64,000 nucleotides of DNA from a virus, in IMG/VR virus record IMGVR_UViG_3300025674_000019, positions 32,001 through 96,000 of that record; one strand, 5' to 3'. Both the position numbers and the translations under genes were made by a program. The notes under the pieces were generated by a model, which saw only the letters and a list, made by a program, of their open reading frames with translations, did no database searches and was not told the origin of the DNA. Positions 19,734 through 47,697 of the stretch are shown here, one piece after another (positions within the stretch are counted from its first letter, which is position 1; each line of letters begins with the position of its first letter).

Positions 19734-20453
19734 ATGGAACTAAGTACAGAAGCACTAGAAGCTGCGTGCAAACTAGCATATGAACTAGGCCAGCAGCGTG
19801 CAAATAATGACTGGGACCTTCTTACGAAAGAAGCTAGCTGGAGGCAGCTGGGGTCTGAGTTCCTGGGGGGAGCTAAGGCTTTGGCTAACCGGCAGACATT
19901 CCAGTCAGGTAGGCAAGCAGCCAGAAGCGCTATGGAAAACCCAGCACTTACGGGCGCTGCTGGTGGGTTTAAAGACCTTGCTAGAACTGCCGGACAACAG
20001 ATGGCTCAGCCTTTTAAGAATGTGTACCAGACATTTAGGGGTAAAGGGTACCAAGGAGCTGTATCCCGAGGAGACGCTAATGTAGAGGCGGCGGCTAAGA
20101 GGCTTCAGGCTGCTACTACCACTGAAGCTAAGCAGATTGCCCAGAAAGAGCTGGCAGAAGCCCAGCGAGCGCTAGATACTCAACTCAAGAGCTTCGGCAG
20201 CTATGGTTTCTCTAGCCCTCAAGCGGCAAGAGCTGCAGGGTCTAGAAACTACTTTGGGGCAGGCGGAGCGCTAGAAGGCCAAGCGGGTAACGTCGCAGCT
20301 GCGGTTGGCGCTGGTGCTCTAGGTACAGCGGGAATATACGGTGCTGGGCAAATGGTCGCTGGGTCTCCGCAAAATACATACGTAACTAACGTGCAGTCTC
20401 AGCAGGCCCCGCATGAGTACTACCTGAACCAGCTAAGCGGCATGTTCTCGTAG
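19734..20453 (+). CDS. K-x-A-motif protein with a Gly-rich membrane helix
   Basis: ATG at 19734 with GGAG RBS; CKLAYELG and TKEASW motifs; helix AAAVGAGALGTAGIYGAG. Confidence 0.6.
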   Translation: MELSTEALEAACKLAYELGQQRANNDWDLLTKEASWRQLGSEFLGGAKALANRQTFQSGRQAARSAMENPALTGAAGGFKDLARTAGQQMAQPFKNVYQTFRGKGYQGAVSRGDANVEAAAKRLQAATTTEAKQIAQKELAEAQRALDTQLKSFGSYGFSSPQAARAAGSRNYFGAGGALEGQAGNVAAAVGAGALGTAGIYGAGQMVAGSPQNTYVTNVQSQQAPHEYYLNQLSGMFS

Positions 20454-20455
20454 TG

Positions 20456-20485
20456 CGCAAAACAGAGGGTTCAGTCTGACATAAG
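20456..20485 (+). promoter_or_regulatory. phage bipartite promoter copy
   Basis: CGCAAA-N15-TGA-CATAAG. Confidence 0.65.
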
Positions 20486-20525
20486 AATATGTCGGGGCAT
20501 TATAGCCCATTATAAGGAGAATCAG

Positions 20526-20939
20526 ATGGCACGTCTGACCTACCTTAATAAAGATCTCGCCGGTATTGGCGGGTCAAACGCGCTTACGCGCGTAAACATT
20601 GAGATCCATAAGCTTGGTCTCGATGTAGAGTACCACCTCGATGCACTGCTCTCTGCCGAGCGGGACATTGAAGACGGGTACTCAGCCCTCGTTGGAGAGT
20701 GGCACTTCCACAACAAGTGGATCAAAGTGCTTAGCTCCAGGCTCATTAAGCTAAAGGCTAAGGCGAAATCTATTCGTGAAAGCCTTGAGCGAGCAATCGA
20801 GGAGGAGCCTCCTGTTCGCACGGGTAGGCTTACTCGTGAGTGGCTTCGCTATGAGAGGGGTTGTGGCTCTAAGCCCGATCAAACTCGTAGCCGAGTTGCC
20901 CGCATTCGCTCCATCGAGCGCAGGGTGGTGCGTCGATGA
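20526..20939 (+). CDS. hypothetical protein
   Basis: AAGGAG RBS; first gene after the promoter. Confidence 0.65.
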   Translation: MARLTYLNKDLAGIGGSNALTRVNIEIHKLGLDVEYHLDALLSAERDIEDGYSALVGEWHFHNKWIKVLSSRLIKLKAKAKSIRESLERAIEEEPPVRTGRLTREWLRYERGCGSKPDQTRSRVARIRSIERRVVRR

Positions 20940-21247
20940 GTGAGAGAGGGTGGGATCTCGAAACTCCCATCTTGGTCTTTCTAGTCGGGGTAGCCCTCGT
21001 TGGTCTTGGCATTGGCCTCCTCGGGATGGCTAAGGAAGACCAAGCTCCCTCGCAGCCGGCGGAGCCTCGCTTCTACGAGGTTCACTGCGAGGGTCCTGAT
21101 GGGTGGGAGAAGTTCACCGTAGACTTCAATGCTTACGGTAAGCCTCGCTCCTTTCGTCAGGGCGTGATGCGCTTTGAGACTACTCAAGGCGTTGAGGTGC
21201 ATGGCAGTAACTGTATCGCCAAGCACCCAGCGGAGTGGCGTCGATGA
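20936..21247 (+). CDS. membrane-anchored hypothetical protein
   Basis: ATGA overlap with the previous gene; N-terminal TM helix. Confidence 0.6.
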   Translation: MSERGWDLETPILVFLVGVALVGLGIGLLGMAKEDQAPSQPAEPRFYEVHCEGPDGWEKFTVDFNAYGKPRSFRQGVMRFETTQGVEVHGSNCIAKHPAEWRR

Positions 21248-21636
21248 TCGGTGTTGCGGGTGCCGGAAAGACACAGGTTGTTAAAAGCCTCCAGGGGCAG
21301 CCTGTAGATTTCTCTCCGCCTCGTCAGCCCTTCTCTCGGGTATTTGTATCAGGAATACCAATGAGCGAGGAGGACACAGTTAGGCATGAGGACAATATGT
21401 GCCTCTCTAACTTCGACGAGGCGGAGGAGGAACTCCGGAAAGCGCTTATGCTCTTGGCCGAGGCTAAGAAGCTCGCGCAGGCCGGGGATCTTCCGGGAGC
21501 GAATGAATCTCTTCATCGGGTAAAGAGCCATGCTTCTGAAGCCAAAGAGTACGCTCAAGGCTGTAGGGAGTGGGTTCAGGGTGTGCCCTTGGGTACAGCT
21601 CTGCCCGAAGATATAGTTGACTACGAGGACGCTTAG
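21244..21636 (+). CDS. hypothetical protein
   Basis: ATGA overlap at 21244; an alternative start exists at 21361. Confidence 0.5.
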   Translation: MIGVAGAGKTQVVKSLQGQPVDFSPPRQPFSRVFVSGIPMSEEDTVRHEDNMCLSNFDEAEEELRKALMLLAEAKKLAQAGDLPGANESLHRVKSHASEAKEYAQGCREWVQGVPLGTALPEDIVDYEDA

Positions 21637-21933
21637 ATGCAGTTCGTAGTCTCTGTCTCTTGGAGAGAAAATCTCCGTAAGCTTATATCCGTCCTTGTTA
21701 ACCTAGAAGAGGATAAGCTTGCGGAGAAAGAGGCCAAGGAGTTCGAGCTTGCTCACTTCTACCTCGAAGGCTTCTACAAGAAGCATCTGCCCTTCGCACT
21801 AGACACTATTCTAGATAAAAGTGAAGGGCAGGTACTGAAGTCCTACGTGTGGCGCGTAGAGGCTGCGAATCAAACCGCTGGGGTATGGGAAGTAGAAAAG
21901 GCTCTAGCAGCCCTTACTGGCCCCCTACCCTAG
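21637..21933 (+). CDS. hypothetical protein
   Basis: Abuts the previous stop codon; GAGG RBS. Confidence 0.55.
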   Translation: MQFVVSVSWRENLRKLISVLVNLEEDKLAEKEAKEFELAHFYLEGFYKKHLPFALDTILDKSEGQVLKSYVWRVEAANQTAGVWEVEKALAALTGPLP

Positions 21934-30668: not shown

Positions 30669-31151
30669 TTACTCCTCAGAAGAGTTAACTCTACTCATAA
30701 TCTCTAGGTCCTCTGCGCTAAGAGAAGCTCTTAGGATCTTATGTAAGGCCTCCGAGTGGGGGCCTGGAACCTCCGGTTCCTGCGTCCACGCTAGCGGAGC
30801 GTCCTGAGCCTTTAATACTGGCTCTAAGTCTGGCTCTAAGCCTGTATCTAATATCTCAGGAAGAAAGTCCTCGGTATCCAGAGGAGTATCTTCCTCAGGT
30901 GTACTTTCCGGAATCCTTGCCGCGGATAATACGCCTGGGTTGAACTCACGTAATGCGATGTAGATGAGCGTACGTATAACCAGGCTAGGAGTGACCTTAA
31001 AGTCAGACTCTAACGCCAACGCATCGGCTAGGTTACCCAGTTCTTCGCGCTGAGCGCGGGTTAATCGAAAAGAAGTGACGGTAATATCGCCGTGGGCCGT
31101 AAGTTTAAGCTGTCGGTCCATATCTAACAATAGTTTTCTGGTTATCTTCAA
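30669..31151 (-). CDS. ribbon-helix-helix DNA-binding protein with an acidic tail
   Basis: TVTSFRLTRAQREELGNLA...TPSLVIRTLIYIAL strand-helix-helix pattern; TTG start with GGAGG RBS. Confidence 0.6.
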   Translation of the reverse strand: MKITRKLLLDMDRQLKLTAHGDITVTSFRLTRAQREELGNLADALALESDFKVTPSLVIRTLIYIALREFNPGVLSAARIPESTPEEDTPLDTEDFLPEILDTGLEPDLEPVLKAQDAPLAWTQEPEVPGPHSEALHKILRASLSAEDLEIMSRVNSSEE

Positions 31152-31259
31152 GGCTAGGAGCCTCCTCTCTCGTTTTGCATTATTGCAGTACTTTAAGTAG
31201 CAATATCAGATTGTATTATGTGTAGTTTAGCATACTTAAGTCTAAAATACAAAAGTTCA

Positions 31260-32100
31260 GTGTCGATACTTTCCGGAAAATAGATGTTCAGTAGTAAAAT
31301 GCATTACGTAATGCATTTTTGCTACATCTAGGTTACACACACATGTAACTAAACGTCGTAGACTGTATACAATTTCTGCTACATCTATGTATACTTTCCG
31401 TTTTTCCGTTATACTTTCCGGAAAATAGGTCTGAATAATATCATACACTTAACTGTACTTTCCGTTTTTTCCGCCTATTTTCCGAAATGGATTTCCTTTT
31501 TAATATCATATAGTTACAGCGAAAAATGGCCTACTTTCCGTTTTTTTCGGAAAATACCTATATATAGGTACTGAGCCCTACTTTTTTTTTCACTCGCCAA
31601 AGGGGCCCGTGAGGGGTACTAAAAATAGTTTAATTTTTTTACTTCCTGTATAGGTGTTCAGGTGAGTATATATCGTACTACCTACTGTAATAACCCTTAG
31701 CTTTGGACTTAGGCTTAAGTTTGCATGTAAGGGCAGTAGTTGGACTCCAGAGTATACACAAAGAGTCAACAACTAACTTAAAAAACCAGTAATTCCCTCG
31801 CGCGTAACGTATATATAGGTATATAAGTATTTCCCTGAAAAAGAGGAAAATAGGGTAAAATAGGGGCTAACCCCATAGAATCACTGGGAAAATACTTTCC
31901 GGAAAGTATAAACAGAAAACGGAAAGTAGCCGTAAGTCTATGTAATTGTTAAGATCTATTTTCCGGAAAGTATGGACCAAAAACGGAAAGTATACATAGA
32001 TGTATCTTTTGCTCAGCCTACTTTCCGGAAAGTAGAGCTAAAAAAACGGAAAGTATACATTCCAGTAGCAAAAGCAGCCTTCAACTACTTTCCGTAATAC
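31260..32100. repeat. AT-rich symmetric iteron/palindrome array (candidate replication origin or centromere)
   Basis: Over a dozen TACTTTCCG/CGGAAAGTA half-sites, full palindromes at 31892-31909 and 32018-32035, and a ~53-bp imperfect inverted repeat at 31380-31432 / 31952-32004. Confidence 0.75.
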
Positions 32101-32112
32101 AAAACCCTCGGA

Positions 32113-33183: not shown

Positions 33184-34184
33184 TCCCAGTCGTGGCGACT
33201 GGGAGATGTTGCCTAGCAGATAGAAAAGTTACGCCTAAGCGTCAGTTTTCTGTCTGAGCAAATGCGCCTGTTAGTACTTATAGCCGGAGTTACCCCGACC
33301 TAGCATCAGAGATCTTCTAAGTGTACGTGTGTACCTGTAGAGGTATTTTCTACGGGTCTCTTTCACTTTACCTAGCGGCGACGTACCTTCGCCATAACTC
33401 AAGATCCTCTAAGCGTAGCTTTCCCTGAGGACAGAGCTCGATTGCGCGAGCTCAGGCCGTAGGGGACGGGGCAACTACTACTCCAGGGTAGTGCCCCGCT
33501 CTGCTACTATACGAGCTTAAACCAGTGGTTGATGTAACCTCAACCTGATTCTCAGGGTTCTCGAATTTAGTTTAGTGGACTGATTTTATCTCAGCAGTAT
33601 TACAACAGAATCCTCTAGATGTAGCTGTTCGTGCCAGGTGGTCGTCTCTACCGACCAAAACCTGGAACAGACGGACATATGTCAATATGTCCGGGTGCCG
33701 AACGTACTGCCAATAACAGAGTGTCTGAAGTAGCTTCAGACTAACCTCAGGATTCTTACATCGCCCTCTAGTTGCTAGGTTTCTTATCCGGCGGTGGACA
33801 CACGGGTCACCCGCCGGATAAGGCATCGTTCTTTCGTCCTCCGAAAAATGATGGAATCCTAACGCCTCGACTATAGCTATAGCTGAAGTGGCTCCAGCCT
33901 AATATCAGGGCGGGTGCCTCTACTTTCTAGCTTAAATTTATTAATGGCTAATTAATAAATTTAGCAAGTAGTGAGCAGAGACCTGCACATTGTATTAGCC
34001 TCGGTGTGCCTCCGAGTTGTACCTCAGGCAGCCGCCTACATGTCTAAGTAGACTAGCATTATATTGCGAGATCTTAGAACGACCTCCAGCAGGGGTAACC
34101 CCTGCCTGCATCGCGGCATAAAGTGGTACTAGCTTTACCGGGACGTGACCCCGGCGGCTCTATTAGTAAGGAGAGCCTGCTAGG
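33180..34184 (+). ncRNA. candidate large structured non-coding RNA A (~970 nt)
   Basis: No credible ORF; many perfect stems, nested helices and end-to-end pairing. G-U wobbles mostly favour the + strand. Confidence 0.55.
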
Positions 34185-37260: not shown

Positions 37261-37369
37261 GCACTCCTCCTTTAAGCGTAAAGTAGTTGCGGCTGACTGT
37301 TACTCTTCTATGAGCACGCCACCAGCCTGTACGATTTGAGCTGCTTCTTCACACCGTAGGCAACTATAC

Positions 37370-37441
37370 TGGGCCGCCCGGGACTCGAACCCGGAACCAA
37401 TGGATTAAAAGTCCACTGCTCTACCATTGAGCTAGCAGCCC
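37370..37441 (-). tRNA. tRNA-Lys(UUU)
   Basis: Cloverleaf GGGCTGC...TTT...GGTTCGAGTCC; CCA not encoded. Confidence 0.93.
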
Positions 37442-37464
37442 ATGCGCCCCTAGCGGGGCGCTGA

Positions 37465-38889
37465 CTAAAAGTCGTCTGTCAGCAAGACGTAGGAACTATA
37501 CGCTGTTAGGGCCGACAATGCTAGGGTCGTTATACCAAGAATCTTATGGCCAGTAGGATATCTCTCCCCCCAGGTGGACAAGCCTCCATGCACAGAAAGA
37601 TCCCCTGTGTTTAGGCAGAGGTTACCTTCTTGCTTATAGTCACGACCACAATCTCTGTAGTACTCACCCGCCAACCAGTTGCCCGCAGCTACCAAAGAGA
37701 GCAGGCCCCCTAGAACTACAACAGGGTAGTTCCACTCCCCGGGCGCTTCACTGTAGTCCACCAGGCCCCTCGTTACGGCTATTCGGCCCGGCTCTACTTC
37801 GGAGTACCTATCGTATGAGCTAAGAGTGTGGATACCCAAGCCATCCTTAAGCACGTGAGTGTAGCCCCAGCCTGGAAGAGAGTCCTGTAGATATTCTCTT
37901 AGAGAATGCAGCTCAGCTTCTCTACTAGCCACCTCTCGAGTTTTCTCCGCTATGGCGGGAGACTCTACGTCTATACCGTAGGCCTCTATCTCTTCATCAA
38001 GGTACTCTTGATATCCGAATAGCTGTAGGTGCTCTAGGACTGCAGCCTTCAGAGTAGCCCCGGACACGCTATCGAAGCCCTGTACCTCTCGCAGCGCGGC
38101 TAGGTGTGATTCTCTGCCGATAGGCTCAACCCTGGGAGAGTTAAGTATCTCAAGAAATCTACTATACTTCCTAGAGTAGTCCCTCAGGTACAGCTTGTAG
38201 TGCTGTACTTTACGCAGGGCGAGATCAGAGTAGTCTGGGTACTGAATTAAATTGTCCCATAACCTGAGGCGCTCGCTAGCGCTTATACTCGGGTCAGAGT
38301 CAGATTGGGTAGCGTTCTCCAGAGCTCTCATAGCCTCCAGGTCCATAGACCGAGAAGCCCTTAGCTCTGCTACTCTAGTTGCATCAAGTAATAACCCTTC
38401 TCTTCCCTGGCGAGAGAAGCTAACAGGCGCCTCCCCTTCCCTGGTAGTAGCGTTTAGCTTCAGAAAGAAAGCGAGCCTTCTAGACAGCTCACCAGTGTTA
38501 CCTATAGAAGAAGACTCGCTGAAGACACTTGTGCCTTCTAGTGATCTAAAAACCTCTAAAGATAACCTTCCAGCTAAAAGCCTGCCTGCCACTACCCAGT
38601 CTGCCCCGACAGTTCTGCCTATATTTACAGAGCACATGTCGGAGCAGTCTTCTAGCTCAGTGCCTTCAGGCAGCAAAGCCTCTACGTTCTCACTACTGAG
38701 AGTCCTATAGGCGGCAGGGTCCGAGATAGTCCTGCGCACTTGCCCAGTGAGATCTATCGCAGCAGTATCTCCCTGTATATTTAGAACTAGTACACGTGGA
38801 AGGCTAGAGGACCTCTCTACTGGCTTGGGCCCTGCGCCACAGCCAAGCAGAAAAGATAAACTAGTAATGCCTACGAATAAGTATCGCAA
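37465..38889 (-). CDS. putative lipoprotein with a TolB-N/CsgG-like domain and C-terminal TM segments
   Basis: Lipobox-like FLLGC; LEDCSDMCSVNIGRTVGADWVVAG motif; probable TTG start. Confidence 0.55.
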   Translation of the reverse strand: MRYLFVGITSLSFLLGCGAGPKPVERSSSLPRVLVLNIQGDTAAIDLTGQVRRTISDPAAYRTLSSENVEALLPEGTELEDCSDMCSVNIGRTVGADWVVAGRLLAGRLSLEVFRSLEGTSVFSESSSIGNTGELSRRLAFFLKLNATTREGEAPVSFSRQGREGLLLDATRVAELRASRSMDLEAMRALENATQSDSDPSISASERLRLWDNLIQYPDYSDLALRKVQHYKLYLRDYSRKYSRFLEILNSPRVEPIGRESHLAALREVQGFDSVSGATLKAAVLEHLQLFGYQEYLDEEIEAYGIDVESPAIAEKTREVASREAELHSLREYLQDSLPGWGYTHVLKDGLGIHTLSSYDRYSEVEPGRIAVTRGLVDYSEAPGEWNYPVVVLGGLLSLVAAGNWLAGEYYRDCGRDYKQEGNLCLNTGDLSVHGGLSTWGERYPTGHKILGITTLALSALTAYSSYVLLTDDF

Positions 38890-39049
38890 AGCCAAGCAAC
38901 AAGAACCAGCCAATGCCCGTCCACCCTGCAAAGATATTAAGCAGGAAGATACCGGGGGTACGGCGCAGCTTACGGGAGCTAGCGATTATACTCGGTAGGA
39001 AGTAGGCTACAGTTATACCAAAGCCGATTACTAGAGCTTCAACGCTCAT
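38861..39049 (-). CDS. superinfection immunity protein (T4 Imm family)
   Basis: YFLPSIIA..R.....IFLLNIFAGWTGIGW signature. Confidence 0.85.
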   Translation of the reverse strand: MSVEALVIGFGITVAYFLPSIIASSRKLRRTPGIFLLNIFAGWTGIGWFLLLGFAILIRRHY

Positions 39050-39200
39050 CGCGCTTATTCCTCAATTGCTTGAGTGCCCACTTCGGAGGGTTCTTCATAA
39101 GATAAACCTTTTGAAGAAACTCCAAAGGATCTTTATATTCTGACTGGTTACTCCAGTTGCTTAGTACTTCAGGGTGCAACCCTTTGTGCGTCTCTTTCAT
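39039..39200 (-). CDS. small hypothetical protein (MKETHKGLHPE..., 53 aa)
   Basis: AAGGAGG RBS. Confidence 0.5.
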   Translation of the reverse strand: MKETHKGLHPEVLSNWSNQSEYKDPLEFLQKVYLMKNPPKWALKQLRNKRDER

Positions 39201-39223
39201 AGTTCCTCCTTTGAAGAGACAAG

Positions 39224-39297
39224 CGTACCAGGCAGGGCTCGAACCTGCGACCCTCGGCTTAGGAGGCCGATGCTCTATCCATCTGAGCTACTGGTAC
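39224..39297 (-). tRNA. tRNA-Arg(CCU)
   Basis: Cloverleaf with anticodon loop CT-CCT-AA. Confidence 0.92.
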
Positions 39298-39356
39298 CTA
39301 TGTCCGGGTTTACCGGACTGAGGGCACTTAGTCCAGAACTTCTACTAGCTCAAGAC

Positions 39357-39557
39357 TTACTCCTCCGTATACCCATCGAACCAAGGCCCAAACCTCTTAG
39401 TTCTACGCACAGCCTCAGGACTGGTAGCTGTGCGGCTACTTGTCTCTGGGTCCCTGCAGTGAGCCTGAGCTTCTTCCTCAGTGAGCCCTGTCTGCCCGTA
39501 GTCTCTACGAGAAGAGTCCCTGTAGAAGCGAACTATTTTATAAGTCGCCACTACCAT
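39357..39557 (-). CDS. hypothetical phage protein
   Basis: YKIVRFY...TGLTEEEAQAHCRDPETSS...WFDGY pattern. Confidence 0.6.
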   Translation of the reverse strand: MVVATYKIVRFYRDSSRRDYGQTGLTEEEAQAHCRDPETSSRTATSPEAVRRTKRFGPWFDGYTEE

Positions 39558-39795
39558 ACCCGCTCTTAGGCCCACGCACATGATCGAGCATAGCTTCCCA
39601 GTCCTCAGCAAATGTCACTAAGTCTGATAGATAGTTCTCTTGAACCATCTTATACGAATTCCTAGGGGACACCCTAGGCTCCTTACCCTGAGACTGCTCC
39701 ATAAGCTTGGAGAACTCTTCGTAGCTAAGTCCAGCTTTAGCGCAGATCAACTGAAGCGCTCTTTCTGCCGGAGTATAGTTTCGACCTCTAGCCAT
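39538..39795 (-). CDS. hypothetical protein
   Basis: 85-aa ORF within the operon. Confidence 0.5.
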   Translation of the reverse strand: MARGRNYTPAERALQLICAKAGLSYEEFSKLMEQSQGKEPRVSPRNSYKMVQENYLSDLVTFAEDWEAMLDHVRGPKSGYGSGDL

Positions 39796-39869
39796 AACAC
39801 ACGATACCCGTGCTTTTGTAGCATCTACTGCTTTCGTTGTTCATGCTTTACCTCCATGAACAGAGTGAG

Positions 39870-39943
39870 TACTCGGAGTGGGACTTGAACCCACGACCCC
39901 CGGTATGTAAGACCGGTGCTCTAACCAACTGAGCTACCCGAGT
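39870..39943 (-). tRNA. tRNA-Val(UAC)
   Basis: Cloverleaf with anticodon arm CCGGT-CTTACAT-ACCGG. Confidence 0.9.
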
Positions 39944-40003
39944 ATAGATTCCCCACCTCAATGGAGCTTAGTGCAGTAATATTAATAAACGAGGCGGGGA
40001 AAG

Positions 40004-40076
40004 TGCTGGAAGAGGGACTTGAACCCCCGGCCGGCTGATTACAAATCAGCAGCTCTACCAACTGAGCTATTCCAGC
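40004..40076 (-). tRNA. tRNA-Thr(UGU)
   Basis: Cloverleaf with anticodon TGT. Confidence 0.92.
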
Positions 40077-40194
40077 TTAGGTCCCGCAGTACTAGGCTAC
40101 CCTGCGGAGCGGTAATGGGCAAAAGGAGGAAAATCCCAAGACCCTTTGGCTTAAACTGCTCACCACAAACAATATGCACCTCCGAATCGCCTAC

Positions 40195-40276
40195 TGCCCC
40201 GGGCCGGACTCGAACCGGCACGCCTCTCGGCGGGAGATTTTAAGTCTCCTGTGTCTACCGGTTCCACCACCAGGGC
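40195..40276 (-). tRNA. tRNA-Leu(UAA)
   Basis: Type II cloverleaf with a long variable arm; anticodon TAA. Confidence 0.92.
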
Positions 40277-40315
40277 ATATCCTTCCTTTCCTAGTATCAA
40301 TGGCGTATATGCGCG

Positions 40316-40507
40316 TCAACACATTTCTGCAAGCCAAGACTCTCCTGAGGGAGTAACTCGCCAAGTGGCATCGCCCATAGTAACAATGGCGTAGGTTTCT
40401 GAAGGCTTCGATACTACTTTGAAGCCCCACTTGTTATCTTTAGAGTCTTTCGTAAGAAACTCGACGCCCTTAAGGACGATATCTACATTCTTTCTTCTAT
40501 TTTTCAT
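40316..40507 (-). CDS. hypothetical protein
   Basis: Coupled ORF. Confidence 0.5.
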   Translation of the reverse strand: MKNRRKNVDIVLKGVEFLTKDSKDNKWGFKVVSKPSETYAIVTMGDATWRVTPSGESWLAEMC

Positions 40508-41057
40508 CTATATCCTTTGGCCACCAATAAGGAGGCTCCGCGTTAGTCCAAGTGGCAAACTTAGCTTTGTCTGCTACGTAGAACTTCCTATAAGACCCCA
40601 CAGGGTCACTAGGATCTTTAAGATGCTCAAGCTCAGGCCCGAATGCTAGATAAGGGGGCGTAACCTTATCCTGCCTAGGGAACAAGCACCTTCCCTCTAA
40701 CCTAAGCCCTAGAGCAAACCTAAAGGCCAACTTAGCTACGCGGTAACTCTTATGCTGAGTACCGAATCTAAGCCTCTGCTGGCTACTCATGCCTATAGAA
40801 TGCCTGTAAGCCCATTTAAAATTAGGCCAGCTCTCTCCTACCCAGATCGTGCACCCATGCTTATGGTGTGCCGTCTTATAGAGGAACTTAAGCCCCTCTG
40901 GGAGCTGCTCTCTAGGGACGTTTATTAGCCCCATGCGCATCCTTACAGCTGTACACAGCATTTGAGCTGTCTCTAGCTGCATTAAAGTGACGTGTTGATC
41001 GCACAACCACCCTGCTGCTTTGAGAGGATTATGGTCCAGATAAAATACGTTCAACAT
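40497..41057 (-). CDS. pyrimidine-dimer DNA glycosylase/endonuclease V-like protein, copy 2
   Basis: NVFYLD...CDQHV...ETAQML, YKTAH, YRKFY...K...ATW...PYWW. Confidence 0.7.
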   Translation of the reverse strand: MLNVFYLDHNPLKAAGWLCDQHVTLMQLETAQMLCTAVRMRMGLINVPREQLPEGLKFLYKTAHHKHGCTIWVGESWPNFKWAYRHSIGMSSQQRLRFGTQHKSYRVAKLAFRFALGLRLEGRCLFPRQDKVTPPYLAFGPELEHLKDPSDPVGSYRKFYVADKAKFATWTNAEPPYWWPKDIDEK

Positions 41058-41602
41058 TTTTCTTTAGGCCACCAGGGTGGCGGCTCAGAGTTAGTCCAGG
41101 TGGCAAACTTAGCTTTGTCTGCTATGTAGAACCTCCTGTATGACCCCGCCGGGTCCATCGGGTTCTTTAGGTGCTCTAGTGCTGGACCGAATGCCATATA
41201 GGGAGGAGTAGTAGTCATAGACTCAGGGAGAATAAAGTTATGCTCCTTTCTCTCTTTATGCAGGAACAACCAAGCATCCTTAGCGACCCGAAAGCTTTTA
41301 TGCCTCGTACCAAATCGCTGCTTGTGTTGCGCGTGCATTTGAATAACGTGCATAAACAGCCATTGAAAGTTACTAAAGCACTCTCCCACCCATTTAGTAC
41401 TGCCGTGCTTAGGATGAGCCGTCTTGTAGAGAAACTTAAGCTCGTCGGGAAGCTCTTCTCTTGGAGTATCCTCCAGGCTCATGTGAACTCTAATAGCCGT
41501 ACACATCATCTGTGCAGACTCTAGAATCATCTTAGAGACATGTTGATCACACAGCCAAGTAGCGGCTATAACTGGGTCGTCATCAAGGTAGAATACGTTC
41601 AC
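41051..41602 (-). CDS. pyrimidine-dimer DNA glycosylase/endonuclease V-like protein, copy 1
   Basis: MNVFYLDDDP...CDQHVSKMILESAQM; paralogue of the adjacent gene. Confidence 0.72.
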   Translation of the reverse strand: MNVFYLDDDPVIAATWLCDQHVSKMILESAQMMCTAIRVHMSLEDTPREELPDELKFLYKTAHPKHGSTKWVGECFSNFQWLFMHVIQMHAQHKQRFGTRHKSFRVAKDAWLFLHKERKEHNFILPESMTTTPPYMAFGPALEHLKNPMDPAGSYRRFYIADKAKFATWTNSEPPPWWPKEKC

Positions 41603-41967
41603 TAGAACTTCTTGAGAACTCGGTGCACTTCGTAGTAGCTAAGGGCTCCGCGCTCTTCTATATCTGTGATTTCGTCTCCCAGACGTATAAACTGGTAAGA
41701 CGTGTCCAGGCCTTGAGAGTCTAGCCATCTAAGGTAGTAGACTACTCTGTCTATCTTAGGATTGTCACAGAACTCGTACCACCTGGTATTCACAGAGGAG
41801 AACTCAACCAACTCTTCTTCCTCTTGCATGGTACAAAAGACGAACTTAAGCGTGTCAAGGATAGAGTCTTTACCCTCTCCTGTAACCCAAAGCTCATACT
41901 CTTCAGTCTTTCTAGAAAGCTCTTCGCTAGTAGAGAAGACCAGGGTAACATCGCTTCTATAGCTCAT
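41602..41967 (-). CDS. hypothetical phage protein
   Basis: MSYRSDV...FIRLGDEITDIEERG pattern. Confidence 0.6.
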   Translation of the reverse strand: MSYRSDVTLVFSTSEELSRKTEEYELWVTGEGKDSILDTLKFVFCTMQEEEELVEFSSVNTRWYEFCDNPKIDRVVYYLRWLDSQGLDTSYQFIRLGDEITDIEERGALSYYEVHRVLKKF

Positions 41968-41972
41968 CTAAA

Positions 41973-42054
41973 TGCCCAGGGAGGGAATCGAACCCTCACG
42001 CCCGAAGGCACAGGAACCTAAATCCTGCGCGTCTACCAATTCCGCCACCTGGGC
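41973..42054 (-). tRNA. tRNA-Leu(UAG)
   Basis: Type II cloverleaf; anticodon TAG. Confidence 0.92.
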
Positions 42055-42167
42055 AGGCCCAAGCACATTGGCAGCTTTGACTCTAAAGGTCAATAGGCTC
42101 GTATAGAGCTTCTTATAATAGAGTTCAGCATAGCACATGCTCATCTCCTAAAAGACATTAGCAAAAG

Positions 42168-42243
42168 CTTATGACAGCAAACTAATAGCTTTTGCTATTG
42201 ATTAGTCATAGCTAAAAGAAAAGTTCCTTAGGCTTTTCTTTAA
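42168..42243 (-). promoter_or_regulatory. terminator+promoter module
   Basis: AAAGAAAAGCCTAAGGAACTTTTCTTTTAGCT, then AGCAAA-N14-TGT-CATAAG. Confidence 0.6.
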
Positions 42244-42250
42244 ACTAGAT

Positions 42251-42460
42251 TTATTCCTTACTGTACCACCCTACCCAGACAAAGCCGAACAGGGGTGATA
42301 TGAACATTGGGATTGCGATCACATCAGGGATCCATGGAGAACCCTTAATCGCAATACAGCTCGCTGCCAAGCAGCCCAGGAGTACCTGGATTTCCCGGTT
42401 GAAGAGCTGCTTGAGTATCTCTCCCCAGCTCATCTCGGGCTCGTGCTCGGGCTCGCTCAA
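42251..42460 (-). CDS. small two-TM membrane protein
   Basis: Coupled to the upstream gene; hydrophobic. Confidence 0.5.
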   Translation of the reverse strand: MSEPEHEPEMSWGEILKQLFNREIQVLLGCLAASCIAIKGSPWIPDVIAIPMFISPLFGFVWVGWYSKE

Positions 42461-43575
42461 CTCTCGCCACCTTCCTTAGCTGCGAGCTTAGCGTGGATCC
42501 GGGCGTGGATCCGGGCGATCTTGAGGACACTCTCGGTATCCTCCATCGCCTCGAATGGATCCCCAGGTAGATCCAAGGTGAAGGCCCACGCCTTCTCCGA
42601 GCACCTGCTCCCTCGGCCCTTGTAGAAGCGAGCCTTCTCAGCAAGCTCAGGAAACTCCTTCTCAAGGATGAGCATCGTCTCGCGGTGACGAATGCTCTGC
42701 CGAGCGGCTGGGTCCGCGCTCACGTAGAGGTTGACCTCTCGGTCGTACCCTGGGATAGAGAAGAGCCTGCGTGCACACCCATCTTTATTTTCCCAGGACC
42801 CCTTAGGGAGGTACTTAACCTCACCCTCAGAGATCTCCCTTGGCAGGAGAATGTCAACATCCGATAGGCCATTAGCGTCAGCTAGGCCACCAGATACGTG
42901 GACACACCCGAAGGGTAGTTCTCCGACAACATCGTCAAAGATGTCGTCCTGGGTCTGAAAGCTCGCACCCCACTTCAGGAGCCTCTTGCGATACTCACGG
43001 ATCCAGCCGTAGCTGGCTCCGCGCCTCTCCAAGTGGCCGGGAGCCAAAAGCACCATCCAGGAGCGGACATTATGAAGGCGGTCCCGCCTCCAGTCTACTT
43101 CCCGGTGGATCCTCCGGTACTCCTCGAAGGCTTCAAGCACCTTCCCAGAGGTACCCATAGCTCTCAGGACATTGAGAGCTGTGTCCACCTCCTGGACCTC
43201 CATCGAACGCCACCAGAAGTCAGCGTTGAAGCAGGGCCCAACCGCCTCACCGAGGCTGCGGATCGCCTGACGAAGATCCACCTGAAACCCAGCAAGCTTG
43301 GTCTCCAGAGAGTACTCTTCGTCTTGGCAATTGATGAGCGCTCGGACCATCTCGTCACAGAGGCTCTCACTCTCGTCGCCGCCTTCAGAGAGCAGCTGAT
43401 CTACGAGCACCTCAACCCAGGAGCGCTCTTCGACCTCGCAGGCACCTTCGCCTGCTTTGAGGACAGTACCGTCCTCTAAGTCTTGCTGGTAGATCTTGTC
43501 GAGATCCCAGCCCTGACCTGCAACGCCAATACGGGCGTTCTTTTTAGTATCTGAGGTTCCCCCAGTTGCAGACAT
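42457..43575 (-). CDS. protein with a C-terminal GrpB/Pol-beta-like nucleotidyltransferase domain
   Basis: VHVSGG...SDVDILL and EVNLYV...EFPELAEKARFYKG; AGGAGG RBS. Confidence 0.5.
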   Translation of the reverse strand: MSATGGTSDTKKNARIGVAGQGWDLDKIYQQDLEDGTVLKAGEGACEVEERSWVEVLVDQLLSEGGDESESLCDEMVRALINCQDEEYSLETKLAGFQVDLRQAIRSLGEAVGPCFNADFWWRSMEVQEVDTALNVLRAMGTSGKVLEAFEEYRRIHREVDWRRDRLHNVRSWMVLLAPGHLERRGASYGWIREYRKRLLKWGASFQTQDDIFDDVVGELPFGCVHVSGGLADANGLSDVDILLPREISEGEVKYLPKGSWENKDGCARRLFSIPGYDREVNLYVSADPAARQSIRHRETMLILEKEFPELAEKARFYKGRGSRCSEKAWAFTLDLPGDPFEAMEDTESVLKIARIHARIHAKLAAKEGGES

Positions 43576-43603
43576 AATGACCTCCTAAAGCCATGTCCAA
43601 TTT

Positions 43604-43633
43604 CTTATACCAGATCCAACCCTAAGATTTGTG
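43604..43633 (-). promoter_or_regulatory. phage bipartite promoter copy
   Basis: CACAAA-N15-TGG-TATAAG. Confidence 0.6.
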
Positions 43634-43654
43634 TGTACGGTAATGGAGGGTAGC

Positions 43655-44515
43655 ATGCTTACTTTTAGTGAGTTGGAAGTTTCGCCTAGTGAGATCGACG
43701 ACCTTTACGACAGGGGATTTGCTAAGAATACCAAACACTTAGAATCAGGCTTCTATGCTTTCAAGTCTGGCAATCAGTCAGCTCTTGTTCATTGCAGAGG
43801 AGACTACATCGACCTCATAGAGTCAAAGGGGCTCACCTTCCAAGGAGTAAAGCCAAGGGACTCTAAGCAAACTTGCATGATGTTCTCTATGGCTAACTAC
43901 CCGCTCACTGTAGCTATGGGCGCAGCTGGAACAGGTAAGACAACGCTAGCGTGCGCCTTTGCCCTTCACTCCCACTTTAAGAAAGACAATAACATAGTAC
44001 TACTGAAGCCTACTTCTTTTACTACAAAGATGAGCAACGCCATAGCACCTATACCCGGAGACCATCGTGAGAAGATGGCTGGGTACATAGATTCATACTT
44101 ATTTGCTATGAACAATATACTAGGTGAAAACTTTGAGCATTACCTCTTTCAGCTGGAAGAAGAGAAGAAGCTAGTCTACCAACCCCTTGAACTTGTTAGG
44201 GGAATGAACTTTGATAAGAGTACTATCATCATCGATGAAGCCCAGAATACTACACCCCATGAGTTACTTACTGTTATATCCCGTGTAGCAGAATCAAGTA
44301 AGATCATAGTGATGGGTGACCTACAGCAAATAGACATAGGTCTAGAGCCAGAAGAGACAGGGCTAGGCTGCCTTCTAGACTCAGACCTATTTTGGGACAG
44401 CCCTCACTGCGGAGCCATAGAGCTAGACTCTCAGTACCGAGGCCCACTGGCAGAACTAGCGGGAGAAATACTAAAGGATCTCTACGCGCAAAAAGAACCC
44501 ATCAAAATGGCATAA
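43655..44515 (+). CDS. phoH: PhoH-like ATPase
   Basis: GAAGTGKT, VRGMNF, IIIDEAQN, ISRVAESSK and GDLQQID. Confidence 0.9.
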   Translation: MLTFSELEVSPSEIDDLYDRGFAKNTKHLESGFYAFKSGNQSALVHCRGDYIDLIESKGLTFQGVKPRDSKQTCMMFSMANYPLTVAMGAAGTGKTTLACAFALHSHFKKDNNIVLLKPTSFTTKMSNAIAPIPGDHREKMAGYIDSYLFAMNNILGENFEHYLFQLEEEKKLVYQPLELVRGMNFDKSTIIIDEAQNTTPHELLTVISRVAESSKIIVMGDLQQIDIGLEPEETGLGCLLDSDLFWDSPHCGAIELDSQYRGPLAELAGEILKDLYAQKEPIKMA

Positions 44516-44516
44516 G
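44487..44516 (+). promoter_or_regulatory. phage bipartite promoter copy upstream of ncRNA B
   Basis: CGCAAA-N15-TGG-CATAAG. Confidence 0.65.
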
Positions 44517-44521
44517 TATAT

Positions 44522-45160
44522 GAGTGAAGCATTTATGTAGTGTAGCGGCCTACCGGTTGCGCATGGACTTCACTTTTGCTGTGCTGCGAAGCATAGCGCG
44601 ACGGCCACACCTGCAGCAGATTCGTCTGTGGCGTTCAGCAGGGAAAAGCTCAGAGGTCTGCCGAAGACTATCTACCTGGGCTGGGGCTTGGTATCCCTAT
44701 TTAACAAAATTACCAGGCGGTGCGCTGAGGAGTGCACTGGAGCTTGACGTAGTCACGTAAAGCTATAGCCTGGCAGCTTCGGCTGTCAGCAGTTCGAGAG
44801 GACTGAGCGGGGGAGAGGGTCTCGCTGCAAAACAAAAGACACTCTACGATCAGCTTAAGTGACATTTGCTGAGCGTTTTCCAGTGTAGTGGTGCGGCACT
44901 CACAATGGATAAGTAATGGGAAAACTTCGGGCTCGTCCCGGAGTTCCGTGCAATAGGCGAAAGCCTACCCACGTCGGGGACAATAACAAGCAAAACCGGC
45001 GGCTAGAAGAGAAAGGTGCGCACCTTATATAGGGCAATCCGAATATCTTAGCAGAGCCTCGGCAGGCCATTGGTAACTGTCGGGTAGATGCCTCTCGGTG
45101 GAGGCTGCTCTAAAGGAAGGTTGAAGCGCTAAGAACTGGCTCACTTTGGTGGGTCTTTCT
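44522..45160 (+). ncRNA. candidate large structured non-coding RNA B (~640 nt)
   Basis: Has its own promoter and terminator, UUCG/GNRA-capped hairpins and long-range helices; no credible ORF. Confidence 0.7.
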
Positions 45161-45175
45161 CTGACGCGTGGAGGC

Positions 45176-45237
45176 CTTTTCTTTAGCTCTTACACCTGAT
45201 GATAGACGTAAATTGGTACCTCCAAATTGGCATAAGC
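45176..45237 (+). repeat. cassette boundary module (TTTAGCT...GATAGACG + promoter)
   Basis: Near-identical to 45927-45991 and 46975-47040. Confidence 0.7.
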
Positions 45238-45302
45238 ATCTGAACCAAAAAAAGGGCTTACACAGCCCACTTCTACGCAGGCCTAAGGCCGAGGAGAGAG
45301 AT

Positions 45303-45887
45303 ATGTCTGACTATCTTTTTAGTGGGTACTTTAATAATCAGAATCTACTAAGCGGGTCCGCTACGGGACTCTTCGACAACCGACACCTCCAGGACCTCCT
45401 GGAGGAGGGCCTAGAGCCCACGGAGGTTGACTGGGGAGGGGACTCCCGTCGCTGCTGGGCCTGGTGCCCAGAGGAGGTAGCCACTAGAAATCCAGGCTTC
45501 GGAAGACCAGTAAGATGGCGCAGGGGCCGCGGAGCCCCAGAAGCAATCACTTTCGGAGGGGCGGTGTTTACCTCCCGCGAGTGGAAGAAAAGCACAGTCG
45601 CGAGGAGGAGAGCCGGTGCGCGCTCAAGAAAGTGGGAGGAGCCTCAGCAGAGGCCCTCGTTCACTTTTCTGCTGCGCAGGCGCGCAGAGGAAAAGAGCTG
45701 TAGTGTAGCCAAGCTACTACTCCAGCAACTGCGCATAGAAAGGCTGACCCACCTGCCGCGGTGGGACGGGGGGCTAGAGCCTCTCCGGAAGGCTATTATG
45801 GCCGCCGAGTGGCAAGGGCTGCCATACGGCCACAGCTTCCAGAGTTTCTGGGAGTGGTGGGCAGTCCACATCCACCCCAGGCTCTAG
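45303..45887 (+). CDS. hypothetical protein
   Basis: GAGGAG RBS at the ATG at 45303. Confidence 0.6.
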   Translation: MSDYLFSGYFNNQNLLSGSATGLFDNRHLQDLLEEGLEPTEVDWGGDSRRCWAWCPEEVATRNPGFGRPVRWRRGRGAPEAITFGGAVFTSREWKKSTVARRRAGARSRKWEEPQQRPSFTFLLRRRAEEKSCSVAKLLLQQLRIERLTHLPRWDGGLEPLRKAIMAAEWQGLPYGHSFQSFWEWWAVHIHPRL

Positions 45888-45926
45888 GCCCGGGGCGGGG
45901 CCTGAACCCGCTCTCGGAGCCCTGCC

Positions 45927-45991
45927 CTTTTTTAGCTCTTACATCCGATGATAGACGCAAAACAGGGGTAGCAAATTGGCATAAGTATATG
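45927..45991 (+). repeat. cassette boundary module with promoter
   Basis: TTTTTTAGCTCTTACATCCGATGATAGACGCAAAACAGGGGTAGCAAATTGGCATAAG. Confidence 0.75.
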
Positions 45992-46027
45992 AAGCGATTG
46001 TTTAACAGCACACAAAGGAGTTTCAAA

Positions 46028-46561
46028 GTGCTGAATTTCTTCAAGAACCTCTTTCGCCCTGCCCTCCCTCCCGTCACCTCCGGGAACATTCTCTACGGGG
46101 ATTTCCCCGGGTACAAGACCTGGTTCTGTTCTAACGAGATTCCGGTCGAGATCGGGGAGCGCGTTCACGCGATCACCAACCACCGCTGCGACGAGCTCTC
46201 GCTGGAGAGCGAGGCGCTGGCGGCGAGGGACGCAGGGCAGCCCCTGGTTCCAGTAACCCTCAAGACCCCTCGCGGGGACCTACGAGGATTCTGCTGGCAC
46301 CACTCAGGCTGTAACGGCCGCGACAGCATCGCGGCCCTACTGACCTTCGGGTCAGTCGAGGACCTTCTCGTTCAGATCGCGGAGCGAAAGCTCCTCAATC
46401 ATTTCGAGTGGGAGGGCAAGCTGTATTCAATCACTTCAAGCGATTGGACCCAAGAGCACGTCGTGCGGGCCGCGAGGCCTCTCACCGACCGAGAGCGGCG
46501 GAAGCCCACTGAGGCGGAAGCGGAGCTGGTGTGGGACGTGAGCTACACGAGGAGCATGTAA
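46028..46561 (+). CDS. hypothetical protein
   Basis: AAGGAG RBS at the GTG at 46028; GC-rich codon usage. Confidence 0.6.
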   Translation: MLNFFKNLFRPALPPVTSGNILYGDFPGYKTWFCSNEIPVEIGERVHAITNHRCDELSLESEALAARDAGQPLVPVTLKTPRGDLRGFCWHHSGCNGRDSIAALLTFGSVEDLLVQIAERKLLNHFEWEGKLYSITSSDWTQEHVVRAARPLTDRERRKPTEAEAELVWDVSYTRSM

Positions 46562-46563
46562 TA

Positions 46564-46683
46564 ATGTTAGGGACGTGGATCTTTTTGGGGTGGAGCTTCG
46601 CCGTCTACTGGCGTCTCTACGAAATGTTCAACCAGCTCCGTAAGGGGGAGCGCGAGTGGAAGGAGAGAGAAAATGAGATTTAA
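46564..46683 (+). CDS. small membrane peptide (MLGTWIFLGW..., 39 aa)
   Basis: GAGGAG upstream; fills the gap in the operon. Confidence 0.45.
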   Translation: MLGTWIFLGWSFAVYWRLYEMFNQLRKGEREWKERENEI

Positions 46684-46855
46684 AGAGTGGCTCCGTAAAA
46701 CGGGATTAAAGGCAGGCATCGTTTGCCTGCTGTGCGTAATCTTATGCCGACTCCTAGGGAGCACAGCGATGGGGAGCCTGCTATCTGGCGGGTGGCTATT
46801 CGGAAGCATCTATTTTATCGATGATTACTTCTATAGAATTAAGGAGAATGGGTAA
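46673..46855 (+). CDS. small membrane protein
   Basis: AAGGAG RBS; hydrophobic. Confidence 0.5.
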   Translation: MRFKEWLRKTGLKAGIVCLLCVILCRLLGSTAMGSLLSGGWLFGSIYFIDDYFYRIKENG

Positions 46856-46935
46856 TGATTGCGTATGTACTGATTAAGATTATTGTCGGCGTTAGCCTCC
46901 TCGTCGGAGGACTCATTATTGCCGACAAGCTCTAA
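46855..46935 (+). CDS. small TM peptide (MIAYVLIKIIVG..., 26 aa)
   Basis: TAATG coupling; AAGGAG RBS. Confidence 0.45.
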   Translation: MIAYVLIKIIVGVSLLVGGLIIADKL

Positions 46936-46954
46936 AAACCCACAACCACCCAAC

Positions 46955-47040
46955 AAAGAAAAGCCTAAGGAACTTTTCTTTTAGCTATGACGCCTGACGA
47001 TAGACGCAAAACAGGGGTAGCAAAATGGCATAAGTATATG
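46955..47040 (+). repeat. terminator hairpin + cassette boundary module + promoter
   Basis: AAAGAAAAGCCTAAGGAACTTTTCTTTTAGCT...GATAGACGCAAAACAGGGGTAGCAAAATGGCATAAG. Confidence 0.75.
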
Positions 47041-47093
47041 ATCCGGGGAATTTCTCCCCGAAAAGACCCGGGGATAACCCCGGAGAAAGGGTA

Positions 47094-47528
47094 ATGCGTA
47101 TGAACGCTGCCCAACTCGCTGAGATTTTCTTTTATTGTTCCTGTGGCGCATTTGTCGCCACCATGGCGCTCACCCACACGATCTCATTCTTCTCCCGCAG
47201 ATCGCTACGGCTGAAGTCACTCCACCGACAGGTGGCAGAATACAAGGGTCTAGCAAATGACTATGAAGCACGAGTCAGGGAGCTCACTAAAGAGCTACAA
47301 GGCACCGCTAGAGAGCTGTACCATGTGAAGCGTGAATACTCCGAGAGCGTGCGCTCCCACGAGGCAAGGTTCGTCCTTCTGGGGGAGGTAGAAGAGAAGA
47401 ATGCCAATCTCAACGGGACTGTAAAGACTCTGTCCGAGCGTCTCAAGGTGCTCTCCTCTCAATACCAAAAGCTACTTAAAAATCATATGGCAAACGGGGG
47501 AACCCGAATAATGGGAGAGGCAAAATGA
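47094..47528 (+). CDS. membrane-anchored coiled-coil protein
   Basis: N-terminal TM helix, then heptad-rich helix. Confidence 0.6.
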   Translation: MRMNAAQLAEIFFYCSCGAFVATMALTHTISFFSRRSLRLKSLHRQVAEYKGLANDYEARVRELTKELQGTARELYHVKREYSESVRSHEARFVLLGEVEEKNANLNGTVKTLSERLKVLSSQYQKLLKNHMANGGTRIMGEAK

Positions 47529-47617
47529 TTATTACCATAGCATGGGTTTTCTCTAAGTTGATAGCGGGATGCCTGATCTTAATCCTAATGTTGGCAGTCC
47601 ATGACCGCCTAACCTAA
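47525..47617 (+). CDS. small TM peptide (MIITIAWVFSKL..., 30 aa)
   Basis: ATGA coupling; GGGAGAGG RBS. Confidence 0.45.
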   Translation: MIITIAWVFSKLIAGCLILILMLAVHDRLT

Positions 47618-47655: not shown

Positions 47656-47688
47656 AAAGAGAAGCCTAAGGAACTTTTCTTTAGCTAT
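47656..47688 (+). terminator. terminator hairpin from the cassette module
   Basis: AAAGAGAAGCCTAAGGAACTTTTCTTTAGCT. Confidence 0.6.
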
Positions 47689-47697
47689 CAAAGCTAC

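Follow-up and report, generated by a model that had tools for sequence, protein, structure and literature searches.

The stretch of DNA analysed here, 64,000 nucleotides (nt) in length and called the window below, covers positions 32,001 to 96,000 of IMG/VR virus record IMGVR_UViG_3300025674_000019. The full record measures 97.8 kb, is estimated to be 61% complete and belongs to an uncultured, aquatic, tailed phage that encodes a baseplate-J-like protein and a class II ribonucleotide reductase. Seven tRNA genes lie at 37369-42055 of the window, and a PhoH-like gene (Pfam PhoH, 4.9e-32) occupies 43631-44515. Directly 3' of the PhoH-like gene is the subject of this report, the plus strand of 44516-45167, which has a G+C content of about 0.52 and is the first of four consecutive units, each headed by a promoter-like block, that fill 44.5-47.6 kb. 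This stretch is non-coding and probably represents a stand-alone phage gene whose product is a non-coding RNA. That it is an expressed non-coding gene is well supported, and that its RNA is structured is moderately supported.

The stretch has little room for a protein. Each reading frame of 44516-45167 holds between 7 and 12 stop codons, and TAA, TAG and TGA all occur in each of the six frames, so that no stop reassignment can open a frame there. The longest open reading frame (ORF), at 44524-44760, starts with GTG and would encode 78 amino acids (aa); a search of 5.8 billion proteins returns no relative of it at E<=0.1. It has a codon score of -0.122, whereas the lowest score of any in-frame segment of 78 codons from 18 long genes in the window is 0.006. 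The seven ORF peptides, 38-78 aa in length, have no Pfam match at E<=1, and their one match in PHROGs is to a PHROG of unknown function at E 0.29. Codon scores are low in the ORFs of the adjacent cassettes as well (0.005-0.086, where genes average 0.21), so that by itself codon use is a blunt criterion in this region. Relatives, family matches and gene-like codon use are all three lacking from the stretch.

The boundaries of the unit are suggested by two sequence features. A promoter-like block on the plus strand at 44497-44523 overlaps the last codons and the stop codon of the PhoH-like gene. Its 21-nt core, 44503-44523, is one of four copies that begin at 44503, 45223, 45972 and 47021, all on the plus strand and 86-100% identical to each other, the copy at 44503 being identical to the one at 47021. 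The copies at 45223, 45972 and 47021 are part of a longer module of 63 nt and are followed by ORFs with Shine-Dalgarno sites, which start at ATG 45303, GTG 46028 and ATG 47094, respectively. Because the block is repeated and positioned in this manner, we infer that 44503-44523 acts as a promoter. The 3' boundary is a terminator-like hairpin at 45138-45160 of the plus strand (scan site 45138-45155) with 7 bp, four of them G-C, a TTTG loop and a T-rich tail, which forms with a pair probability (p) of 0.98 in the ensemble fold. Sites of this type are not rare between 42000 and 48000, where 9 are found and 6.0 expected, and the terminator call is thus weak on its own. The promoter-like block, the terminator site and the RNA contigs described below together point to a primary transcript of the plus strand that would run from the end of the block to the terminator tail, 44524-45160. 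The first-pass annotation, made from the DNA letters alone, had described a non-coding, free-standing unit of the plus strand, and the stops in all frames, the promoter-like block of its own and the terminator-like hairpin bear this out.

RNA from the stretch is present in nature. Nineteen public sequencing runs share words with 43600-47600, and two of these are metatranscriptomes (X5 and X6). They hold 0.17 and 0.14 of the words of this 4-kb region, respectively, which is about the share that the stretch has of the 4 kb. X5 contains one contig of 561 nt (record 9) that spans 44550-45110, and X6 contains two (records 11 and 12) that span 44545-44766 and 44755-45108; all three agree with the window with 0 differences, and there are no loose ends on the contigs at the stretch. 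The RNA seen in this way has a minimum extent of 566 nt, 44545-45110, and is assigned to the plus strand, the strand being inferred and not read. X6 has no cover elsewhere in 43600-47600, and X5 has only 47428-47600 and, in one mixed record, 44149-44174 (26 nt) and 46953-46970 (18 nt). Carried-over DNA would extend to the flanks as well, and the signal in X5 and X6 is therefore RNA. The RNA of the stretch clearly exceeds the mRNAs of the PhoH-like gene and the next two cassettes in abundance or in stability. A discrete transcript was the check set beforehand, and the two metatranscriptome runs cover just 44545-45110 and have no contigs on the flanking genes. The first-pass annotation also called the RNA giant, a label that is generous for a molecule of at least 566 nt as seen, and of at most about 635 nt if it extends from promoter block to terminator. 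The DNA runs X2 and X8 have no contig over 44499-45568, one contig of X2 ending at 44498, which does not show absence.

The second line of evidence is the density of tetraloop-capped hairpins. Stems of at least 5 bp capped by a GNRA or UNCG loop were counted in 44516-45167, and 2000 dinucleotide shuffles served as controls. The plus strand holds five such hairpins (GCGA at 44586, UUCG at 44621 and 44778, GAGA at 44796 and GAAA at 44959) and the minus strand 0. None of the 2000 shuffles reached five, their mean being 0.29 and their maximum 3. The entire plus strand of the window contains 27 capped hairpins, a mean of 0.26 per 650-nt segment, and the value of five occurs only at this stretch. 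It is also the maximum over six phage genomes (566 kb, both strands), with a segment of four in genome G002 as the runner-up; that segment was considered as a similar RNA and rejected, being coding sequence with no Rfam match. Four-loop hairpins of any kind number 15 in the stretch against a shuffle mean of 5.5, a count that one of the 2000 shuffles matched. Nearly all helices with p of at least 0.8 contain one or two G-U pairs, which would be mismatched on the opposite strand. A hairpin signal specific to one strand, as here, fits RNA and not duplex DNA. The earlier proposal that the G-U pairs suit an RNA of the plus strand agrees with both the makeup of these helices and the restriction of the tetraloop excess to the plus strand. 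The RNA is probably structured.

The predicted hairpins are spread over most of the RNA, all of them on the plus strand. A GCGA-capped hairpin of 8-9 bp at 44577-44598 (p 0.98), which is of the GNRA type, is followed by a UUCG-capped hairpin of 5 bp at 44616-44629 with a p of only 0.43. The ensemble fold and the tetraloop count together delineate a row of five adjacent hairpins at 44686-44805. These comprise one with a 17-nt loop at 44686-44718 (p 0.95), one with a GAGG loop at 44719-44738 (p 0.92), one at 44741-44764 (p 0.87), one with a UUCG loop at 44770-44789 (p 0.99) and one with a GAGA loop at 44790-44805 (p 0.99). Further 3' are a hairpin of 8 bp at 44924-44944 (p 0.87) and a GAAA-capped hairpin at 44954-44967 (p 0.96). 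All letters that the first-pass annotation had quoted are found in place, including the arms of a 5' stem, the GCGA (44578-44597), TTCG (44770-44789) and GAAA (44954-44967) hairpins, two long-range helices of 10 bp and, at 45138-45160, the hairpin followed by a T-rich tail. The minimum free energy (MFE) is -242.5 kcal/mol for the plus strand and -200.3 kcal/mol for the minus strand, the plus strand thus folding better by 42 kcal/mol.

The RNA matches no catalogued family. At gathering thresholds, Rfam 15 finds only seven tRNA matches in the whole window. A cmscan of both strands of 44300-45400 with all 4227 Rfam 15 families at E<=10 finds nothing on the RNA stretch; the single match, to a Tetrahymena snoRNA model, has 14.6 bits where the gathering score is 85, lies at 45191-45311 outside the RNA and is meaningless. 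Self-splicing introns, RNase P, tmRNA, 6S and other catalogued RNAs are without an Rfam match, and ARAGORN likewise detects no tmRNA. The first-pass annotation could place the RNA in no family by eye, and the comparison that it had called for, cmscan against Rfam with GOLLD, ROOL, OLE, RNase P and the group I/II introns, leads to the same answer at E<=10.

Homologues were sought at several levels. There is no match to 44400-45300 among 50,697 phage records by blastn in distant mode, nothing by nhmmer in 80 PhoH-bearing IMG/VR loci, where the best blastn match has an E of 0.37, and none (0 of 5) at E<=10 when the five nearest IMG/VR relatives are searched over their complete records at the DNA level. 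The 18- and 19-mers taken from the RNA have no exact copy in the IMG/VR viral contigs, and neither a 36-mer nor a 20-mer has one in 185,579 prokaryote genomes. An 18-mer of the promoter occurs at five loci in the IMG/VR viral contigs, none of which is related to the window. The phage itself is remote from every isolate, the best PhoH identity among the 50,697 phage records being below 34%. The IMG/VR viral contigs contain no close relatives of PhoH, of the 372-aa gene or of the ORFs at 45303-45887 and 47094-47528. The closest PhoH (P0001) is 88% identical and is located on a 1.8-kb ENA contig, and PhoH relatives at about 50% identity (L002-L004) have protein ORFs within about 130 nt of PhoH and no comparable gap. 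A metagenome scan returned three loci, one that ends inside PhoH (L082), one with another arrangement (L083) and one that is distant (L084). No published report of this RNA was found in a literature search, as far as the sources were accessible.

The unit lies in an array that differs between strains. A perfect inverted repeat of 37 nt, 42205-42241 and 46955-46991, brackets the PhoH-like gene and the cassette array. The relative L083, which is 87% identical in its PhoH DNA, departs from the window after 44496, exactly at the promoter-like block, and its PhoH end is joined there to an inverted tRNA-Leu block (window 42198 down to 41385; L083 308-1113). This is the arrangement that an inversion between the repeat copies would give. 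In the marine DNA run X8 a contig joins 46561 to 46948 with 13 other letters between them, and the 386-nt piece 46562-46947, which in the window holds short ORFs only, is missing there. Since the array varies between strains in L083 and in X8, the RNA gene belongs to a swappable accessory region and not to the conserved core.

The module that punctuates the array can be described further. Its 63 nt combine a T-rich hairpin tail with the promoter-like block and recur at 45176-45243, 45925-45992 and 46974-47041 with 76-100% identity, and partial copies are present at 44503-44523 and 47674-47695. The module divides 44.5-47.7 kb into single-gene cassettes on the plus strand. The cassette ORFs at 45303-45887, 46028-46561 and 47094-47528 have a G+C content of 0.55-0.56, compared with about 0.49 for the genome, and have no family assignment in Pfam or PHROGs. 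For one of these ORFs, 16 of the 27 differences to a marine relative are on third codon positions, an excess that indicates that this cassette ORF is coding.

Several results weigh against a structured, free-standing RNA gene. A scan with the sigma-70 consensus flags none of the four promoter-like blocks. The metatranscriptome contigs reveal neither the strand, nor the true ends, nor the level of the RNA, and X5 and X6 have different study codes but come from the same year and habitat type and are possibly one campaign. The contigs stop short of the limits of the transcript proposed above, by 22-27 nt on the 5' side and by about 50 nt on the 3' side, a pattern equally compatible with a trimmed transcript and with an untrimmed one whose ends are thinly covered; the ends that they share are a weak hint only. 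The folding energies are modest, with MFE z values of -2.63 for the plus and -2.11 for the minus strand (20 shuffles each), and when MFE is regressed on G+C over 600-nt segments of the genome the stretch is no outlier (z -0.2 to -0.6). A terminal helix of 8 bp on the plus strand, between a 5' arm at 44544-44551 and a 3' arm at 45102-45109, speaks for structure in the fold of 44544-45110, where its mean pair probability is 0.945 (an end helix of such a kind appears in 54 of 3000 shuffles), but has a probability of 0.000 when 44523-45160 is folded. L083, the closest relative with sequence past PhoH, does not carry the RNA at this junction. Finally, none of the searches returned a homologue from which covariation or conservation could be read.

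The long-range architecture proposed by the first-pass annotation fares less well than its local hairpins. Its closing helix, 44631-44639 with 45120-45129, is not supported, with a mean pairing probability of 0.004, and the 3' arm lies beyond the RNA contigs. The two 10-bp helices of the plus strand, 44655-44664/45059-45068 and 44670-44679/45080-45089, do cross as described, but helices of this length occur at chance frequency: three with at least 10 bp and at most two G-U pairs are observed against a shuffle mean of 2.28, and 36% of 150 shuffles have three or more. The pseudoknot is therefore without statistical support. The energy model favours only the first of the two crossing helices, which contains one G-U pair and has a p of 0.81 in the short form and 0.34 in the long form of the RNA. 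As a predicted feature the pseudoknot is possible but unsupported.

One alternative holds that the RNA is transcribed junk. A strong promoter and a terminator would flank a cassette that is empty or has decayed, and its RNA would be visible through promoter strength alone and have no function. The lack of homologues, the missing cassette at the L083 junction, a folding energy that is no outlier, long helices at chance level and the strain-variable neighbour cassettes, of which X8 skips 46562-46947, would all suit such a remnant. A decayed gene, however, is not expected to gain five GNRA/UNCG-capped hairpins on one strand, a number found in none of the shuffles, and no frame retains a trace of a protein family. 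Promoter strength alone also sits poorly with the sister promoters, as two of their three mRNAs left no contigs in X5 or X6 and the third is represented only by its far end, 47428-47600, in X5 only. We consider junk transcription unlikely.

The RNA could also belong, as a highly diverged member, to one of the known families of large RNAs, such as GOLLD, ROOL, OLE, the group I/II introns or RNase P. In size and phage setting, and in having a tRNA cluster at a distance of 2.5 kb, it is similar to GOLLD and ROOL as a recent report portrays them (10.1101/2024.12.08.627333), yet the cmscan of all Rfam 15 families found nothing on the stretch even at E<=10, and we regard membership in one of these families as very unlikely.

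GOLLD and ROOL remain the closest points of comparison. ROOL stands for rumen-originating, ornate, large. According to the same source, the two are large, ornate phage RNAs that are reported to build protein-free cages of unknown purpose, and GOLLD expression rises during phage lysis (10.1101/2024.12.08.627333). Like ROOL as portrayed there, the present RNA is phage-encoded, untranslated, about 600 nt long and rich in hairpins, with a tRNA cluster nearby, here at 37369-42055 (10.1101/2024.12.08.627333). Unlike ROOL, it has no homologue in the searches made here, and at E<=10 the Rfam model of ROOL does not match it. With GOLLD it shares an aquatic or freshwater phage source and the character of a large stand-alone RNA gene that is expressed in nature. 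It is shorter, with an upper bound of about 635 nt as against more than 800 nt in many GOLLD members (10.1101/2024.12.08.627333), has no Rfam match and no recognisable conserved 3' domain, and differs in its setting, as no tRNA lies inside or directly beside the RNA. GOLLD and ROOL genes are found in phages or prophages, often next to tRNA islands; the present record is that of a virus, and its nearest tRNA gene is 2.5 kb upstream on the opposite strand with two protein genes between. The elaborate secondary structures of GOLLD, ROOL and OLE are backed by covariation among many homologues, and GOLLD and ROOL form homo-multimers made of RNA alone with conserved kissing loops, for which the one lead in the present RNA is the 14-nt palindrome at 45013-45026. 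As the two families are described in that source, the RNA resembles GOLLD and ROOL in its size, phage origin, non-coding nature, natural expression and tRNA neighbourhood and fails their family models.

Phage T4 provides a further precedent. Its small stable RNAs, species 1 and 2 (rnaC/rnaD), are stable and untranslated, are made from phage promoters near tRNA genes and have no known function. They are several times shorter than the present RNA. The comparison with them is indirect only: blastn of the stretch against the 50,697 phage records gave no match, and no direct similarity search was made.

Another possibility is that the transcript serves as mRNA and encodes one small protein or several, for example from the 78-aa GTG frame or from a 38-aa ATG frame at 44916-45032. 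Such frames exist, and the codon scores of the 38-aa and a 39-aa frame (0.08 and 0.035) are near those of the neighbour cassettes. The 78-aa frame, however, has neither relatives nor a gene-like codon score, no Shine-Dalgarno site is visible by eye before these starts, family matches are lacking and the frames cover less than 40% of the RNA seen, all of which makes a small-protein mRNA highly improbable. The least probable explanation is an element that acts at the DNA level (a recombination hot spot, origin or packaging site) with incidental RNA contigs, for although the stretch begins exactly at the L083 switch point (44496) within an array of repeated modules that includes a 37-nt perfect inverted repeat, it contains no iterons or direct repeats beyond one weak 23-nt pair (D8, 74%), is not A+T-rich at a G+C of about 0.52, has a strand-specific hairpin signal and is held selectively by RNA libraries.

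The stretch contains some further sequence features. The only palindrome of at least 10 nt in the RNA is a perfect one of 14 nt at 45013-45026 of the plus strand; its chance expectation is estimated at about 0.035 per 567 nt. Shine-Dalgarno-like words are not enriched in the RNA, and with no excess of them the reading of the RNA as a ribosome sponge gains no support. Words resembling boxA, defined by a 13-nt consensus with at most three mismatches, are at chance level, with 17 occurrences in the window where 20.95 are expected; one occurrence is at 44695-44707. Sixteen nt of the RNA, 44858-44873, are identical to the opposite strand of 39604-39619, which lies between tRNA-Arg and tRNA-Val; with an E of 0.07 this is probably chance.

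Elsewhere in the window two other ORF-poor regions are apparent. An island of low G+C at 31001-32000 (0.375 against about 0.49) falls in a gap without long ORFs, 31152-32112, and its folding energy is an outlier on both strands. A second large gap poor in ORFs, 33184-34179, had been listed by the first-pass annotation as RNA A. Its minus strand folds better than expected (z -2.1 to -2.7), and it is outside the tetraloop-dense segments, at most about 2% of 650-nt segments reaching a count of three. The strongest outliers of the window in folding energy corrected for G+C, with z down to -3.5, are 20401-21900 on the plus strand and 42301-43500 on the minus strand, both of which fall in runs of G+C-richer ORFs and not in gene-free DNA.

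For a free-standing RNA gene the following course may be envisaged. Transcription would start just behind 44503-44523, the same block that heads the three neighbouring protein cassettes, and the plus-strand transcript would probably stop at the hairpin and T-tract of 45138-45160 and go untranslated. Its fold would consist of numerous short hairpins with highly stable GNRA and UUCG caps, and its ends may be locked by the 8-bp helix between 44544-51 and 45102-09, either as made or after trimming. A compact fold with paired ends could protect the RNA from exonucleases and give it a long life, allowing it to build up far above the adjoining mRNAs. The non-coding nature of the stretch, the discrete species in the RNA libraries and the one-strand tetraloop excess are observations on which this picture builds; promoter, terminator, exact ends and fold are its predicted parts.

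What the RNA might do in the infected cell is a matter of conjecture. It may act in trans and hold or sequester a host or phage partner, which would place it among accessory functions of host takeover or counter-defence; this guess is made because the RNA sits in a strain-variable array of accessory cassettes. A role as decoy or sponge is the guess we prefer, and we hold it tentatively. The second guess, a self-assembling body made only of RNA like those of ROOL and GOLLD, is drawn by analogy and is rather unlikely, and the palindrome at 45013-45026 is a possible self-pairing site. It is conceivable, if doubtful, that the RNA is the first member of a new class of large phage RNAs: compact, exonuclease-proof, studded with tetraloops, carried on a swappable promoter-terminator cassette and serving, with no protein encoded, as a self-assembling body or as a decoy that would titrate a host defence factor or an RNA-binding factor.

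Few viral gene products are as poorly understood as the large structured RNAs of phages, GOLLD and ROOL among them. As a single sequence without relatives, the RNA described here is of value as a well-delimited candidate and not as a proven new class. If the proposal is true, it would add a further, unrelated RNA of similar size and thereby widen the set of large phage RNAs, and it would hint that such RNAs can be traded between phages in the same way as accessory genes.

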